A stretch of DNA of 21,991 bases from the UHGV virus genome UHGV-0131363; one strand, 5' to 3'. The position numbers were made by a program, and so were the translations under genes. Within the stretch, counting starts at the first letter, position 1; each line of letters begins with the position of its first letter. The stretch is from a virus. A model generated the notes under the pieces. The model did no database searches. It saw nothing but the letters and a program-made list of their open reading frames with translations, and was not told the origin of the DNA. Shown here piece after piece: positions 5,730-9,813 of the stretch.

Positions 5730-5740
5730 AATCTTCTCCA

Positions 5741-5768
5741 GAAATTAAAAAGGCTCCCGTAGGAGCCT
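5741..5768 (-). terminator. rho-independent terminator downstream of the Nampt-family gene
   Basis: Minus-strand RNA forms AGGCUCC-uacg-GGAGCCU (7-bp stem, plus-strand arms 5751-5757 and 5762-5768) followed by UUUUAAUUUC. Confidence 0.65.
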
Positions 5769-5771
5769 CTT

Positions 5772-5799
5772 ATCATATACTTTTAAAGCTGCTTGTCAA
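5772..5799 (-). promoter_or_regulatory. candidate sigma70-type promoter (-35 TTGACA, 16-nt spacer, -10 TATGAT) overlapping the 3' end of the Nampt-family gene
   Basis: Minus strand reads TTGACA (plus tgtcaa 5794-5799), a 16-nt spacer, then TATGAT (plus atcata 5772-5777). The predicted start site falls inside the terminator hairpin, so transcripts from here would bypass it and read into the 111-aa gene, the small zinc-finger ORF and rIIA. Confidence 0.3.
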
Positions 5800-7564
5800 T
5801 ATTATTTCGAATATCACCAAGAGTTGTGTAGCCGAACTGCTCAGAGTCGCTAAAGACTAGACGTAAAGCACAAGCTGGATGTTCAAGTGCATCTGCAAAG
5901 CTCTGGAACCCATAGCCATCTACAGCTTTCAGATTTTCACCATCCCACATAGGTGCTACACCACCAAAAGCAGACTTCTTAACACCACTATCTGTTTTAG
6001 GGTCTTTTGCAAGCATAATCTCTTTACCACCAATGCTTGCAAGGGTTGCTTTGACAGCAAATGCAAAGGTGTCACGAGTCATGTACTGGTAAGTGTAAGA
6101 ACCTACACCAAACACTACGTTAGAGCTTGCAAAACCCATTTCATACAAACGCTTCAGTATTTCATTTGCACGTTCCAACGTGATAGAGTCGCCATAAATA
6201 AGTCCAATATGCTCATCCAGTACTTTAAAGCCTTTAGAGTTAATAGTTCCCCCAAAGATGTTGTACAGTGTCTTAATAGCTCCATCAATCTCAGCTACAG
6301 GACGTGTTACAACGTTTGCAGAACCAACCATATAAGCATTTTTCAACATCACTGTATCAGCAACTTCAAAGTCTTCTCTGTCAACAACCATCTCGTAGCC
6401 TTCTGACAGTAGCCATCCAGCAATACCATAGTTGATGTTCTCAAGCTTCATGTTCAGAACAGCATTCAACATTGTGTCACTGGCTTCCAGCTTGCTTAGG
6501 TGCTCGTAATAAGCCTTCTTAGCACATTCTAAGTGGATTGCTTTATAACCTGTGACAATATGTACAGGGTCTCCAGAGTCAGGACGAATTACCAGTTTAC
6601 CGTCACGTCCCATAATCTCTTTGCGAAGTGCTGGTAAAATTTCTGACACAGTTCTCCAGAAGTTATAAGTGTCTGAAACAACACTTGCAATACCAGTTGG
6701 GTAAGTTTCTGTTAAGAAACGACGGAAGGTTTGTAACTCACCTTTAAAGCGTCTTTCTTCTTCAATCAACTCATTACCACCTTCCCAAGCAATGTTTGCA
6801 CACATTACAGAGTGCTCAGTGGCTGGTACAGAGCTACCAATATCAGAGATTGGGTAAGACTGCCCATAAATGCGTTTAGCCGTGTATACAGCAGGGAAGC
6901 TATCAGTTCCTTTAAAGCTGGTTAAGTGACCTACAGCATTAAATGCGTCATCAGTAAAGCCTGACATGCCACGCATAGCAAAGTCATGGCACTGATAGGG
7001 CAGATGCAAGTCGTTGTCACAAGTAAGGTCAGCCCACTTCTTACAGATGCGTTTGTAATGCAATGCAATAGTTGCAATGGTACAAGCCTTCCAAATCTCA
7101 GCAGAGAAAGCATCTTCCAGATAACCTGCTACCCAATGGAAACCTGAAACAGTGTTCTGGAAAACAATCATTGGGACACGCATAGGGACAACTGTGCCTT
7201 CTTCTACAGCGTATACTTCAACTGGTAGATAACCTAAGTCGTGAAGTGCTTCCCAATGCTCTCTACCGATAGCATCTTTACCCAGAACACCATTCATGAC
7301 TTCTAAGATTTCGTCAATTGCTTCTTTTTTATCACGTTCAAAGAAAGTGGCATTCCAGTGGTCTATCAAGTAATCTTTAACAAAACGTTGAATACCAAAA
7401 GCTACTACACCATCAATTGCTAAGGGGCTGTTAAACCATTTATCACTGCGTGGTGTCAGGTTCAACATAAGATATTGCGTAGCATCTGGATACTGATATA
7501 TATGTGATGCCTTGTAAGCATCTGCATTAAGACCTGCTGGTACTGCGTAAAGTGACTTACTCAT
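5783..7564 (-). CDS. nadV: nicotinamide phosphoribosyltransferase-family protein (Nampt/NadV-like); candidate Namat (nicotinamide ADP-ribose transferase) of a NARP1 NAD+ reconstitution pathway
   Basis: 593 aa. N-terminal NADAYKASHIYQYP (Nampt DSYK motif), HDFAMRGMSGF...HLTSFKGTDS...SVPATEHS, VVSDTYNFW...LVIRPDSGDP and GLIYGDSIT...VVFGVGSYTYQ follow the Nampt-family motif order. About 100 aa longer than canonical Nampt. Located 1 gene away from a Prs-family gene. Confidence 0.9.
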   Translation of the reverse strand: MSKSLYAVPAGLNADAYKASHIYQYPDATQYLMLNLTPRSDKWFNSPLAIDGVVAFGIQRFVKDYLIDHWNATFFERDKKEAIDEILEVMNGVLGKDAIGREHWEALHDLGYLPVEVYAVEEGTVVPMRVPMIVFQNTVSGFHWVAGYLEDAFSAEIWKACTIATIALHYKRICKKWADLTCDNDLHLPYQCHDFAMRGMSGFTDDAFNAVGHLTSFKGTDSFPAVYTAKRIYGQSYPISDIGSSVPATEHSVMCANIAWEGGNELIEEERRFKGELQTFRRFLTETYPTGIASVVSDTYNFWRTVSEILPALRKEIMGRDGKLVIRPDSGDPVHIVTGYKAIHLECAKKAYYEHLSKLEASDTMLNAVLNMKLENINYGIAGWLLSEGYEMVVDREDFEVADTVMLKNAYMVGSANVVTRPVAEIDGAIKTLYNIFGGTINSKGFKVLDEHIGLIYGDSITLERANEILKRLYEMGFASSNVVFGVGSYTYQYMTRDTFAFAVKATLASIGGKEIMLAKDPKTDSGVKKSAFGGVAPMWDGENLKAVDGYGFQSFADALEHPACALRLVFSDSEQFGYTTLGDIRNNIDKQL

Positions 7565-7570
7565 ATTTTA

Positions 7571-7582
7571 TCTCTCTCTCTC
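7571..7582. repeat. (TC)6 dinucleotide repeat forming the GAGAGA purine-rich RBS of the Nampt-family gene
   Basis: Plus strand tctctctctctc at 7571-7582 gives (GA)6 on the minus strand, 6 nt upstream of the ATG at 7564. Similar GAGAG runs precede other starts (rIIB, 10403, 20148). Confidence 0.7.
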
Positions 7583-8074
7583 TTAGTTATGTCTTGCAAA
7601 CTCACCATGAAGTTCTATTCGCTTTTTAATTACAGCTTCTTTTGCTTCTTCTACCGTTTTAAATCTTCCACAAAAGTATTCTTTATGGTAAAGCATGACT
7701 CTTGCTTTGTAAAGACCTGTTTGTTTACAAAAACTTACACCCTTCACACCAGTTTTATTATTCTTGTATATACCCCTATTCCTCTGATTTTGTGACTTTG
7801 TGCTAAGTCTTAAATTATCCAACTTATTATTAGATTTATCAAGGTCTATGTGGTCTATCTCATATCCACTTGGTATCTCACCTCCAGACATAATCCATGC
7901 AATATTATGTGCATAGTACCTCTTCTTATTTATCTGGACTTGGATATAACCCTTCTTAGACCTTGTGCCAGCCACATTACCAGCAATAGCGGTACTGCAA
8001 AGGGTTACTCTCCAAATTAATAAACCTGTATCTGGTTCATATATTAGGTATCTTTCAAAATAACCCTTATTCAT
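7583..8074 (-). CDS. free-standing HNH homing endonuclease with C-terminal AP2-type DNA-binding domain
   Basis: 163 aa. HNH motif GYEIDHIDLDKSNNKLDNLRLSTKSQNQRN and AP2-like segment GVKGVSFCKQTGLYKARVMLYHKEYFCGRFKTVEEAKEAV. Inserted between the Prs-family and Nampt-family genes. Confidence 0.75.
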   Translation of the reverse strand: MNKGYFERYLIYEPDTGLLIWRVTLCSTAIAGNVAGTRSKKGYIQVQINKKRYYAHNIAWIMSGGEIPSGYEIDHIDLDKSNNKLDNLRLSTKSQNQRNRGIYKNNKTGVKGVSFCKQTGLYKARVMLYHKEYFCGRFKTVEEAKEAVIKKRIELHGEFARHN

Positions 8075-8082
8075 ACTGTTAC

Positions 8083-8979
8083 CTAATCAATGGTTGCTAC
8101 AGTCACTTGACCGTAATGTGTTAAGCCACGGTCTTTAGCTTCACCTAAAGTGTTTGTAGTGTAGATATGGTCAATACCGTTGTCAAGTAAGTTTTCAACA
8201 CCTTTAGAGAAAATACCATGAGTTACATAGAGTTCCACACGTTTTGCACCTGCTTCACGTAGGTGTTTAGCTGCCTCTACGAAGGTTCGACCACCATCAC
8301 AGATATCATCAAGAATCATGACAGTTTTATCGGTCAAATCAACATCGTCAAGGATTCGCATACCAGTGATTTCTCCAGTCTTAAGATTGCGAACCTTAGA
8401 CATTGTGATATATGGTTTATCTACCTCTTTAGCGGTCTCTGCAACCTTCTTAGCAGCACCTGCATCTGGGGCTACTAAGTAATCAACCAGTGGGTCATTT
8501 GCATAGTGGACTGCAATCTCCTTTTGAGGAATACTCTGGAAGCAGTTAAACAGGTTATCTGGTACATAGCTGTGAGGGTCAACTGCACAGACTGCGCCAA
8601 ATCCCATTGCATTAATCTGTTTAGCAAAAACCTTTAAAGCTGCTGCGTCACCTTTAAACATGTGACGGTCATATCGTGCATTTGGTAAGTAGTAAAAGAT
8701 GACAGTCTTTAAAGCATAATCATGAGGAATTAAATCATCAATTGCTTCTTTAGCAAGTGCCACAGCAAATAATGTGTCTTTGTCATAACCCTTTACAATC
8801 ATAATCACGTTGTTGATGGATGATGTAGCATAAGCAGTAAAATCAACAAACTCTGGTGAAAAGTGTCCACCAATCTCACCAGAAGGGAATTGGACGATGT
8901 TAAACTCTTCTTCATGAGTCCCCTTAGCTGGTGAATGAACTGTAACACGGATAGATGTTTTCATAGTTTTCTCTCTCAA
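8083..8979 (-). CDS. prs: ribose-phosphate pyrophosphokinase-family protein (Prs-like); candidate Adps (ADP-ribose pyrophosphokinase) of a NARP1 NAD+ reconstitution pathway
   Basis: 298 aa. PRPP-synthetase motifs YLPNARYDRH (compare E. coli Prs YFGYARQDRR), VAPDAGAAKK, and the PRTase-type binding loop VMILDDICDGGRTF...GAKRVELYVTHGIFS. ATGA overlap with the upstream gene. Confidence 0.85.
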   Translation of the reverse strand: MREKTMKTSIRVTVHSPAKGTHEEEFNIVQFPSGEIGGHFSPEFVDFTAYATSSINNVIMIVKGYDKDTLFAVALAKEAIDDLIPHDYALKTVIFYYLPNARYDRHMFKGDAAALKVFAKQINAMGFGAVCAVDPHSYVPDNLFNCFQSIPQKEIAVHYANDPLVDYLVAPDAGAAKKVAETAKEVDKPYITMSKVRNLKTGEITGMRILDDVDLTDKTVMILDDICDGGRTFVEAAKHLREAGAKRVELYVTHGIFSKGVENLLDNGIDHIYTTNTLGEAKDRGLTHYGQVTVATID

Positions 8980-9254
8980 TCAAAAGTTACGTTTGTTACT
9001 GCCATTGCAGATTTGCATTTTACAGGGTCTACAACGTGGTAAAGTACACTACAGTTACCTGTGCTGTCTGGTACAGGCTTTACCCATTGCTGCTTTATAG
9101 TTGGCTCTCCTAAGTCTTTGTAAGAACCATCTGTAAAGTTGTTTACCATCTCAAGTGCAATTGGTTCTGGAACATGACCACGTATCATGTACATCTCACA
9201 ACCATTACCTCCTTCACTGACTAATGGTAAAATCTCCCACTTTTCTTTAGCCAT
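8976..9254 (-). CDS. hypothetical protein (92 aa)
   Basis: ORF translationally coupled to neighbours (ATGA overlap downstream, 8-nt overlap upstream). No recognisable motif. Confidence 0.5.
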   Translation of the reverse strand: MAKEKWEILPLVSEGGNGCEMYMIRGHVPEPIALEMVNNFTDGSYKDLGEPTIKQQWVKPVPDSTGNCSVLYHVVDPVKCKSAMAVTNVTFD

Positions 9255-9762
9255 TATAAGTTGCCCTATAAACTGTCTCGAACTTCAACAGGAGAGATAT
9301 TGCCAAATCTGTATAGTTGTTGTCAAGCACATCTGGCATATTATTTTTGATATATTTCTCTTGCTCTTCATAGGTCATCTTAGGGATACTTAGGAGGCTA
9401 TCTCCTTGCTTCTGGTTATCAGCTTTAGTTTGGATAAACCAGTTTGCACAGTGATGTTCACCACCTTTTGTAACAGGTTTGTGATGACCTAATGTAAATG
9501 TTTGCTTACCAGTATACCTGCAAAGATTGTTCAGTGTTGCAATGGTGTTCTTCACAACACACCATTCATACAGGTTATCTATTGTGTAGTGTGGGTAATA
9601 ACGGACAAGTGCTCTTTCACGGAAGTTATCACGATTCCAAAGAACCATGTGATTAGAATTTGAAGGGTCATATTTGTGGGAGTCTATAAACTCTTGACGC
9701 TCATCAAAGCTGAGTCTTAGAACTGACATTGCAACCGAACGTTTCAGGTTTGACAGGTACAT
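9247..9762 (-). CDS. hypothetical protein with possible His-Me finger (HNH-like) nuclease motif
   Basis: 171 aa. Segment LGHHKPVTKGGEHHCANWFIQTKADNQKQG resembles the HH...GG...N...N pattern of HNH/His-Me finger nucleases but lacks the zinc-binding cysteines. RBS GGAGG upstream of the ATG at 9762. Confidence 0.5.
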   Translation of the reverse strand: MYLSNLKRSVAMSVLRLSFDERQEFIDSHKYDPSNSNHMVLWNRDNFRERALVRYYPHYTIDNLYEWCVVKNTIATLNNLCRYTGKQTFTLGHHKPVTKGGEHHCANWFIQTKADNQKQGDSLLSIPKMTYEEQEKYIKNNMPDVLDNNYTDLAISLLLKFETVYRATYNG

Positions 9763-9771
9763 TTTACCTCC

Positions 9772-9801
9772 AAAATAAAAAGGGAACCTTTACAGTTCCC
9801 C
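9772..9801 (-). terminator. rho-independent terminator followed directly by the RBS of the 171-aa gene
   Basis: Minus-strand RNA forms GGGGAAC-uguaaag-GUUCCCU (6-7 bp, plus-strand arms 9782-9787 and 9795-9800) followed by UUUUUAUUUU, then GGAGG and the ATG. Confidence 0.55.
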
Positions 9802-9813
9802 TATAGTATCTGT

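Follow-up and report, generated by a model that had tools for sequence, protein, structure and literature searches.

Does a phage gene pair from the Prs and Nampt families serve ordinary NAD+ salvage, or does it form the anti-defense pathway NARP1? The question is posed by positions 5783-8979 of a 21,991-nt segment of phage DNA (the window, meaning the whole stretch that was analyzed), in which an initial annotation, a reading of the raw sequence made without tools, had recognized a NARP1 operon; the label in public annotations, and in the curated HMMs PRK09198 and TIGR01251, is still Prs/NadV salvage. Judged from sequence and structural comparison, the locus is very probably a functional NARP1 anti-defense operon of a Felixounavirus. 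NARP1 is already known, and the locus is an ordinary copy of it, in the genus of its discovery, that has been split by a selfish homing-endonuclease gene. It brings nothing new for the biology of the pathway; the modest leads are an Ounavirinae insertion in Namat, two allele classes of Adps, and the homing endonuclease at the junction of the two genes.

In the proposed mechanism, a NAD+-depleting defense (SIR2-HerA/Nezha, Thoeris, DSR1/2, SEFIR, or similar) would break NAD+ down to ADP-ribose and nicotinamide. Adps would transfer the beta,gamma-pyrophosphate of ATP to the 1'' hydroxyl of ADP-ribose, yielding ADPR-PP, which Namat would join with nicotinamide to give NAD+ directly, without an NMN intermediate and without an NMNAT. 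NARP1 was first defined by deletion of genes 79-80 of phage Bas63, which abolished escape from SIR2-HerA and sensitized the phage to this defense ~20-fold (Osterman et al., bioRxiv 10.1101/2024.02.11.579819). In that study, NAD+ restoration and ADPR-PP were seen only when wild-type Bas63 was combined with the defense system, and the rescue was independent of host pncC and nadR. Enzymes of SpbetaL1, ICP1, DyoEdafos, and P. foliorum have been shown to convert ADPR to ADPR-PP and on to NAD+, and metabolomics has shown this conversion for Bas63. For the window, orthology, conservation of specificity residues, and fold are established here, and from the published work on orthologs we infer its chemistry and anti-defense phenotype.

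Organization of the adps-namat region

The window is a Felixounavirus segment, with 94-96% nucleotide identity over 96-99% of the length to many FelixO1-like phages and 93.9% to Bas63. Positions 5783-8979 are filled by three intact, closely packed ORFs, all on the minus strand (Table 1), whose matches to PHROG, Pfam, and NCBIfam families are far beyond chance: (i) the adps product matches Pfam Pribosyltran and Pribosyl_synth, TIGR01251 (123 bits), and PHROG 619 (E=7e-97); (ii) the product of the middle gene has HNH_3 and AP2-like DNA-binding domains (Pfam PF13392, E=2e-19; PHROG 99, E=5e-68); and (iii) the namat product matches NAPRTase and NAMPT_N, PRK09198 (469 bits), and PHROG 448 (E=2e-201). 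These matches confirm the Prs- plus Nampt-family pair of the initial annotation, which had also warned that such pairs are often misannotated as Prs and NadV; NCBIfam indeed names Namat 'nicotinate phosphoribosyltransferase'. The start of Adps is almost certainly ATG 8964, giving 293 aa, and not the mechanically assigned TTG 8979, because a GAGAGAG ribosome-binding site lies upstream of this ATG and the position agrees with the annotated start of bas63_0079. This start, the HNH gene, and the divergent N-terminal allele of Adps (discussed later) had been overlooked in the first reading.

Table 1. Features of the adps-namat region, in window coordinates
Feature	Position	Strand	Size or composition	Basis or remark
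Terminator-like hairpin	5748..5771	-	10-bp stem, then T run	12 nt downstream of namat stop codon
namat (Nampt-like, predicted nicotinamide ADP-ribose transferase)	5783..7564	-	593 aa	Orthology, AlphaFold2 model
Namat selectivity-clamp helix motif	6071..6103	-	GSYTYQYMTRD, residues 488-498	Aromatics at motif positions 3 and 7
Namat insertion domain	6284..6538	-	Residues 343-427, small alpha/beta module	Absent from 490-497-aa Namat and Nampt proteins
Namat selectivity-clamp loop	7436..7447	-	SDKW, S40-D41-K42-W43	Identical to Bas63 Namat
HNH homing-endonuclease gene	7583..8074	-	163 aa	Pfam, PHROG 99
adps (Prs-like, predicted ADP-ribose pyrophosphokinase)	8083..8964	-	293 aa	Orthology, PHROG 619, mapped residues
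Divergent-allele segment of adps	8435..8964	-	N-terminal domain, aa 1-177	69% nt, 66% aa identity to Bas63
Two upstream genes of unknown function	8976..9762	-	171 aa and 92 aa	PHROG 3500 and PHROG 4726, respectively
Terminator-like hairpin	9780..9802	-		Upstream of gene block 9762->5783; consensus scan only

The adps and namat genes lie on one strand, 518 nt apart, with the HNH gene alone between them (gaps of 8 and 18 nt). The published criterion for the operon neighborhood is a 'Namat homologue in the immediate vicinity', and for 97% of Adps-clade genes a Namat gene is found close by. Both products have orthologs at equal syntenic positions in Bas63 (Escherichia phage JohannRWettstein), a member of the same genus: Adps, which this orthology places in the phage Adps clade of the PRPS family, is identical to bas63_0079 at 232 of 293 residues (79%) across all 293 aa, and Namat to bas63_0080 at 576 of 593 (97%). 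The two phages also share the position of the locus, between an nrdG-side block and rIIA; the small gene bas63_0081, located downstream of namat in Bas63, is missing from the window.

Terminator-like hairpins bracket five genes, and the one farther upstream may delimit, on the 5' side, the transcription unit with adps and namat. The two upstream genes are possibly co-transcribed with adps. The 171-aa product contains a weak HNH-like stretch, and the position of its gene is kept in phiSUSP1, Arno162, and SB18 at 40-45% identity. We rejected both genes as NARP1 accessories because subfamily-wide synteny and the bracketing hairpins are all that speaks for such a role.

Namat fold and selectivity clamp

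All catalytic-core residues, as defined in the Namat of SpbetaL1 (D13, Y15, F189, R192, D215, the catalytic His, R306, and D308), are present in the window protein (D15, Y17, F195, R198, D221, H251, R327, and D329). An AlphaFold2 model of the latter (pLDDT 91.4) had the crystal structures of SpbetaL1 Namat, 9w5x/9w5w, as its best PDB match (TM 0.95 on target); HdNadV and human NAMPT ranked behind. The window Namat thus shares fold and catalytic residues with an enzyme of a biochemically characterized NARP1, while the SpbetaL1 protein, ~38% identical in the structural alignment, is ~490 aa long and lacks both of the insertions described below.

The clamp helix of the window Namat conforms to the published Namat consensus GSX-phi-X-phi-X-phi-TRD, in which X is aromatic (PMC12774641), and is of one motif type with GSFTYQYNTRD of SpbetaL1. 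Used as controls at this position, H. ducreyi NadV (GAQTYQRNTRD), the closest true NadV with a solved structure, and Xcc Nampt (GGALLQKVDRD) both lack the Namat motif. For the clamp loop, the published rule is that position 3 is Arg, or else that it is Lys/Tyr and a stacking residue comes next (PMC12774641); in SpbetaL1, Arg40 stacks adenine, whereas the window and Bas63 proteins have Lys-Trp, that is, Lys at the third position and then an aromatic stacking residue.

Adps residues and the salvage alternative

Adps residues were mapped onto the structurally characterized Adps of Vibrio phage ICP1 (NrsA; apo, substrate-bound, and product-bound structures, PMC13586617), which is 32% identical to the window protein. 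The catalytic Lys is K190 (8395-8397), within TMSKVRN; it aligns with ICP1 K185, the beta-hairpin lysine equivalent to SpbetaL1 K162 and B. subtilis Prs K197. The acceptor residues R97, H131, D167, D219, D220, and D223 are likewise present (ICP1 R87, H121, D161, D212, D213, and D216). The PP loop, DDICDGGRTF (8281-8310, including C222), shares DDICD with ICP1, which has GAAS in place of GGRT; the E. coli Prs loop is DDMIDTGGTL. As in ICP1, the C-terminus is truncated: at 293 aa, compared with 315 aa for E. coli Prs, Adps is without the alpha11-alpha12 regulatory/filament helices of PRPS, and its alignment with E. coli Prs stops short of the Prs C-terminal helices. In ICP1, F18 (from the neighboring protomer) and F92 stack on the adenine of ADPR (PMC13586617); these align with H10 and M102 in the window and with T10 and M102 in Bas63, within an N-terminal alignment that is weak (32% identity). 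The Bas63 Adps, which is active in vivo, likewise does not have the two ICP1 phenylalanines.

Against the NCBIfam Prs equivalog and subfamily models, Adps scored 41-107 bits, with cut-offs of 296-536; no equivalog cut-off that would mark it as a canonical ribose-phosphate diphosphokinase was reached, and the only model passed was the broad TIGR01251 subfamily model (123 bits vs a cut-off of 113). These scores bear on the alternative that the locus encodes ordinary salvage, in which the Prs-like protein would make PRPP, the Nampt-like protein NMN, and host NadR/PncC would complete NAD+, as a general boost to NAD+ and nucleotides with no dedicated counter-defense. Such a reading fits the database names (Prs, NadV, nicotinate PRTase) and the Pfam/NCBIfam matches. 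It also fits the observation that SpbetaL1 Namat forms NMN from PRPP in vitro at roughly half human Nampt's activity (PMC12774641); Nampt activity is therefore not lost. Nevertheless, because the window Namat has a clamp motif missing from true NadV and Nampt, and its partner Adps falls below all Prs equivalog cut-offs and has no PRPS regulatory C-terminus, we regard salvage as very improbable.

An NMNAT, the initial annotation had observed, was not visible, and this holds: Pfam scans of 27 window ORFs found no NMNAT or CTP_transf_like domain, and the annotation of the complete Bas63 genome lists none either, the search having covered the 22-kb window for this phage and the Bas63 annotation beyond it. 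NARP2 (Nampt plus NMNAT, e.g., in Vibrio phage KVP40), like the NadV/Prs salvage of bacteria, has in common with the window a Nampt-family enzyme and its substrate, nicotinamide; unlike in NARP2, the Nampt homolog of the window has the ADPR-PP clamp motif and Adps, not NMNAT, as its partner. NARP3 (PnuC plus a NadR-like protein) was rejected, as its components differ. A PADLOC scan was uninformative, returning for Adps generic phosphoribosyltransferase-domain matches to the toxins PsyrT and ShosT (E ~4e-6, at most 55 aa).

The comparison of profiles, structures, and pocket residues proposed in the initial annotation favors NARP1, by way of the Namat clamp motif, the Namat-best structure match, and the sub-cut-off Prs scores; orthology to bas63_0079/0080, synteny, and the published Namat and Adps signatures support the same reading. 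The locus also serves as an example of how the families can be discriminated: by GS[YF]T[YF]Q[YF]xTRD in Namat, by a DDICD loop with a truncated C-terminus in Adps, and by the absence of an NMNAT gene.

A homing endonuclease at the adps-namat junction

The HNH gene is a free-standing selfish homing endonuclease settled in the intergenic spacer, not a pathway enzyme, and is a long-standing occupant of the junction. Bas63, whose spacer consists of 45 nt with a small hairpin, does not have it, and neither do Yersinia phage P778 and another contig. It is found at the adps-namat junction in 62 phage records, FelixO1 among them, and sporadically in distant Ounavirinae-like phages; phiSUSP1, Arno162, and SB18, all distant phages, also have the order adps-HNH-namat, and the junction homologs are 51-58% identical across lineages. 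We rejected the possibility that the gene is a domesticated component of the pathway, given these absences and its standard HNH_3 plus AP2 architecture. PADLOC matched it to homing-endonuclease models only, a result that we judged uninformative.

Insertions in Namat

The Nampt-family protein had been described at the outset as about 100 aa longer than canonical Nampt, and this is correct (593 vs 489-497 aa): the extra length comes from two insertions, of which the shorter adds ~14 aa near residues 259-272 and the longer ~72-85 aa near residues 343-427. Since Bas63 Namat has the same length of 593 aa, with insertion and clamp residues as in the window, the extra length does not set the protein apart from NARP1. 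The larger insertion (~85 aa) is confidently folded in the model, and Ounavirinae-like phages as far removed as 46% identity conserve its length; structural comparison detected no relative of its fold. We consider it unlikely that the insertion serves as an additional functional module instead of being neutral decoration; as a module, it could control Namat activity, tether Namat to Adps, or shield Namat from a host inhibitor. The Adps and Namat of SpbetaL1 do not bind each other.

The insertion, or one of the small flanking genes, might alternatively extend the pathway to non-canonical NAD+ breakdown products, in the manner of the Macro-domain ADPR-1P phosphatase of NARP1-AP (Adps-Adpp-Namat) or of RyDEP, a RyR-domain cADPR glycosidase. 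Accessory genes are known to have been recruited to NARP1 operons, and NARP1-AP and RyDEP operons, like the window, have a third gene in or beside the adps-namat pair; a bracketed block in which two of the five genes are of unknown function, and an insertion that folds well and has no known relative, are compatible with such an extension. However, the third gene of the window encodes a plain HNH endonuclease with neither a Macro nor a RyR domain, and nothing suggests that it acts on ADPR derivatives. Pfam gave no Macro or RyR match in the 27 window ORFs scanned, those between 5236 and 10819 included, nor does the Bas63 genome annotation list such a domain, and conservation of the upstream genes reflects genus- and subfamily-wide synteny, not a NARP1-specific association. 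We therefore judge an extended pathway highly unlikely.

Operon integrity and Adps allele classes

Despite the HNH insertion, adps and namat are intact, each with its own ribosome-binding site, which for namat is a GAGAGAG 6-18 nt upstream of the ATG. Because the insertion replaces the 45-nt spacer of Bas63, the relative expression of Adps and Namat could differ. The adps gene itself is a composite when compared with Bas63: its 3' part is 95% identical in nucleotides and the encoded C-terminal catalytic domain 100% identical in amino acids, and the upstream flank is 97% identical in nucleotides, whereas the N-terminal 177 aa belong to another allele class (Table 1).

Both features raise the prospect of an impaired NARP1, in which the HNH gene, having displaced the native spacer, uncouples or lowers namat expression, or in which Adps activity has been lost or changed through the N-terminal domain, whose identity to the tested allele class is 66%. 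We consider this scarcely probable. Both ORFs are full length with all catalytic and specificity residues intact, the namat ribosome-binding site is retained, and the split arrangement recurs both in the 62 phage records and in phiSUSP1, Arno162, and SB18. The window-type Adps allele, moreover, is commoner than the Bas63 type, with 155 records at at least 90% identity and a cluster (P0121) of 791 member sequences. The persistence of the adps-HNH-namat order, together with the commonness of this allele, argues for a working operon. The presence of two deeply diverged N-terminal alleles of Adps within Felixounavirus could reflect host pressure on this protein.

Gene content and relation to phage Bas63

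The minus strand carries every substantial ORF of the window, which has a GC content of ~38-40%, and three of these ORFs, tightly packed, make up 5783-8979 (see table). Profile searches bore out the pairing of a Prs-family gene (adps) with a Nampt-family gene (namat) that the initial annotation had recognized in this interval, but that account left unmentioned the third gene, which encodes an HNH protein. The mechanical call began adps at a TTG (8979); this start was ruled out in favor of the ATG at 8964, which is preceded by GAGAGAG, agrees with the annotated Bas63 start, and yields a protein of 293 aa.

Features of the window discussed in the text
Feature	Coordinates	Strand	Assignment
Terminator-like hairpin	5771-5748	minus	12 nt past namat stop; consensus scan only
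Nampt-family protein (namat), 593 aa	5783-7564	minus	NAPRTase + NAMPT_N; PRK09198, 469 bits; PHROG 448, E=2e-201
Larger Namat insertion, ~72-85 aa (residues 343-427)	6284-6538	minus	
Smaller Namat insertion, ~14 aa (residues ~259-272)	~6749-6790	minus	
HNH_3 + AP2 homing endonuclease, 163 aa	7583-8074	minus	PHROG 99, E=5e-68
Prs-like ORF (adps), as called mechanically	8083-8979	minus	Pribosyltran + Pribosyl_synth; TIGR01251, 123 bits; PHROG 619, E=7e-97
First 530 nt of adps	8435-8964	minus	
92-aa gene upstream of adps	8976-9254	minus	PHROG 4726
171-aa gene upstream of adps	9247-9762	minus	PHROG 3500; weak HNH-like stretch
Terminator-like hairpin	9802-9780	minus	consensus scan only
nrdD, 714 aa	12239-14383	minus	
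PRA-PH / MazG-like pyrophosphohydrolase domain protein, 251 aa	19169-19924	minus	PF01503, E=7e-6 (above Pfam cut-off)
SegE-like GIY-YIG endonuclease, 165 aa	20170-20667	minus	PF19835, E=9e-28

Both the 3.2-kb interval and the full 22-kb window matched more than 250 FelixO1-like records (Felixounavirus, Ounavirinae) at 94-96% identity. Among the matches to the window was Escherichia phage JohannRWettstein (Bas63; MZ501086.1), at 93.9% identity across 96% of the window, and the two share the gene order exonuclease, nrdA, nrdB, nrdD, nrdG, small genes, prs-like, nampt-like, rIIA, rIIB, and PNK. Namat is identical to bas63_0080 at 576 of 593 residues and Adps to bas63_0079 at 232 of 293, identities that by themselves establish orthology of the locus to the founding NARP1 operon. 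NARP1 was discovered by deleting Bas63 genes 79 and 80: the mutant plated ~20-fold worse on SIR2-HerA, NAD+ collapsed with the mutant only, ADPR-PP was seen only for wild-type phage combined with the defense system, and rescue was independent of host pncC and nadR (Osterman et al., bioRxiv 10.1101/2024.02.11.579819).

The window's nrdD is unbroken; the Bas63 annotation joins its nrdD (12543-15429 in L001, the Bas63 sequence) from two segments, with the homing-endonuclease gene bas63_0068 inside, and Bas63 has ~740 extra nt at the point equivalent to window 13186. The 114-aa bas63_0081 (L001 6207-6551), directly 3' of Bas63 namat, is missing from the window (~5730-5782), in which the gene coming straight before the terminator-like hairpin is namat.

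Namat and Adps signatures

A structural study of Namat from SpbetaL1, published in 2026, defined the features that separate Namat from Nampt, with the catalytic core conserved; the adenine 'selectivity clamp' combines the helix motif GSX-phi-X-phi-X-phi-TRD, in which X is aromatic, with a variable loop contributing one further stacking residue (PMC12774641). In the window's Namat the clamp helix reads GSYTYQYMTRD (residues 488-498), the loop is S-D-K-W (residues 40-43), as in Bas63, and core residues D15, Y17, F195, R198, D221, H251, R327, and D329 are kept. At the helix position, the nearest genuine NadV with a solved structure (H. ducreyi, 9ke8) has GAQTYQRNTRD, and Xcc Nampt has GGALLQKVDRD; since both controls differ there, the motif discriminates. 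An AlphaFold2 model of Namat (pLDDT 91.4, pTM 0.91) best matched the Namat crystal structures 9w5x and 9w5w (TM 0.95 on target), with HdNadV and human NAMPT ranking below them.

Chromosomal proteins of Klebsiella, Cronobacter, and Erwinia annotated 'nicotinate phosphoribosyltransferase' (search matches P0072, P0084, and P0069; 495-497 aa) also carry the clamp motif, as GS[YF]TYQYNTRD, and the Adps search returned Adps-like proteins from the same genera. At the level of sequence, this pattern fits the reported bacterial NARP1 modules.

For Adps, we used the functional residues listed in the September 2026 structural paper on the ICP1 enzyme (PMC13586617), aligning the proteins of the window, Bas63, and ICP1 with two further Adps-clade proteins and E. 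coli Prs. The window protein has acceptor residues R97, H131, D167, D219, D220, and D223 and catalytic K190. Its PP loop is DDICDGGRTF, versus DDMIDTGGTL in Prs; it lacks any equivalent of the alpha11-alpha12 regulatory helices at the C-terminus (293 aa versus 315 aa), and every NCBIfam Prs equivalog cut-off lies far above its score. The one mismatch concerns the adenine-stacking Phe18 and Phe92 of ICP1 Adps, which, in a region where the alignment is weak, appear not to be conserved in the window or Bas63 proteins.

Pfam scans covering 27 ORFs of the 22-kb window detected no NMNAT, Macro, or RyR domain, in keeping with the earlier remark that no NMNAT gene was visible, and the annotation of the complete Bas63 genome lists none either; on this coverage, NARP2, NARP1-AP, RyDEP-extended operons, and NARP3 are inapplicable and were ruled out as the identity of the locus. 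In the profile and structure comparison that the initial annotation had proposed, the clamp motif, the Adps acceptor and catalytic residues, and the Namat-like model all fit NARP1. With orthology to the Bas63 pair, they uphold its NARP1-like anti-defense reading and support a NARP1 operon that would work as published: Adps would convert ADPR and ATP to ADPR-PP, Namat would combine ADPR-PP with nicotinamide to give NAD+, and the regenerated NAD+ would counter NAD+-depleting defenses. Lying in the genus where NARP1 was discovered, the locus is already known; the leads left are the insertion domain of Namat, the two alleles of the Adps N-terminus, and the homing endonuclease at the junction.

Variation within the operon

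Over the first 530 nt of adps, identity to Bas63 is 69%, with sharp boundaries; it reaches 97% in the upstream flank and 95% in the 3' 349 nt. In the protein, it is 66% for the N-terminal 177 aa and 100% for the C-terminal 116 aa. Two allele classes, window-type and Bas63-type, coexist in Felixounavirus, and catalytic residues are conserved throughout both. The window-type allele is the more frequent, with 155 phage records at >=90% and a cluster of 791 sequences, and its activity, predicted from sequence, is the chief residual uncertainty.

Namat had been described as ~100 aa longer than canonical Nampt, and this excess resolves into two insertions relative to Namat and Nampt proteins of 490-497 aa. 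Both are also in Bas63 Namat and so belong to the validated NARP1 enzyme. The larger forms a domain that is well folded in the model (pLDDT ~91), of conserved length among Ounavirinae-like phages, and with no detectable fold relative.

In Bas63, adps and namat are separated by a 45-nt spacer (L001 8387-8431) containing a small GC hairpin, GGGGCTTGAAAGCCCC, followed by ATTTTG, a possible attenuator or processing site. The window lacks this hairpin: there the 492-nt HNH gene takes the place of the spacer, leaving gaps of 8 nt and 18 nt, and a GAGAGAG ribosome-binding site is kept before namat. The insertion occurs in 62 phage records, FelixO1 included; phiSUSP1, Arno162, and SB18 have HNH genes at this junction that are 51-58% identical across lineages, and none is present there in Bas63, Yersinia phage P778, or the compared contig L010. 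Such a patchy yet long-lived distribution is as expected of a homing endonuclease that depends on a conserved target, and the HNH gene is not counted as a pathway member. The junction of a metagenomic Ounavirinae-like contig (L011 1677-2524) holds, without an HNH gene, two small unannotated genes (128 and 125 aa) with no Pfam match. The window's SegE-like gene is its second of homing-endonuclease type.

Neighboring genes

Two terminator-like hairpins bracket five genes: the 171-aa and 92-aa genes, adps, the HNH gene, and namat. We found nothing linking the first two to NAD+; their upstream position is kept across the subfamily, the 171-aa gene being likewise placed in phiSUSP1, Arno162, and SB18. 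Farther away, the Bas63 counterpart of the 251-aa PF01503 protein is bas63_0059, annotated as hypothetical.
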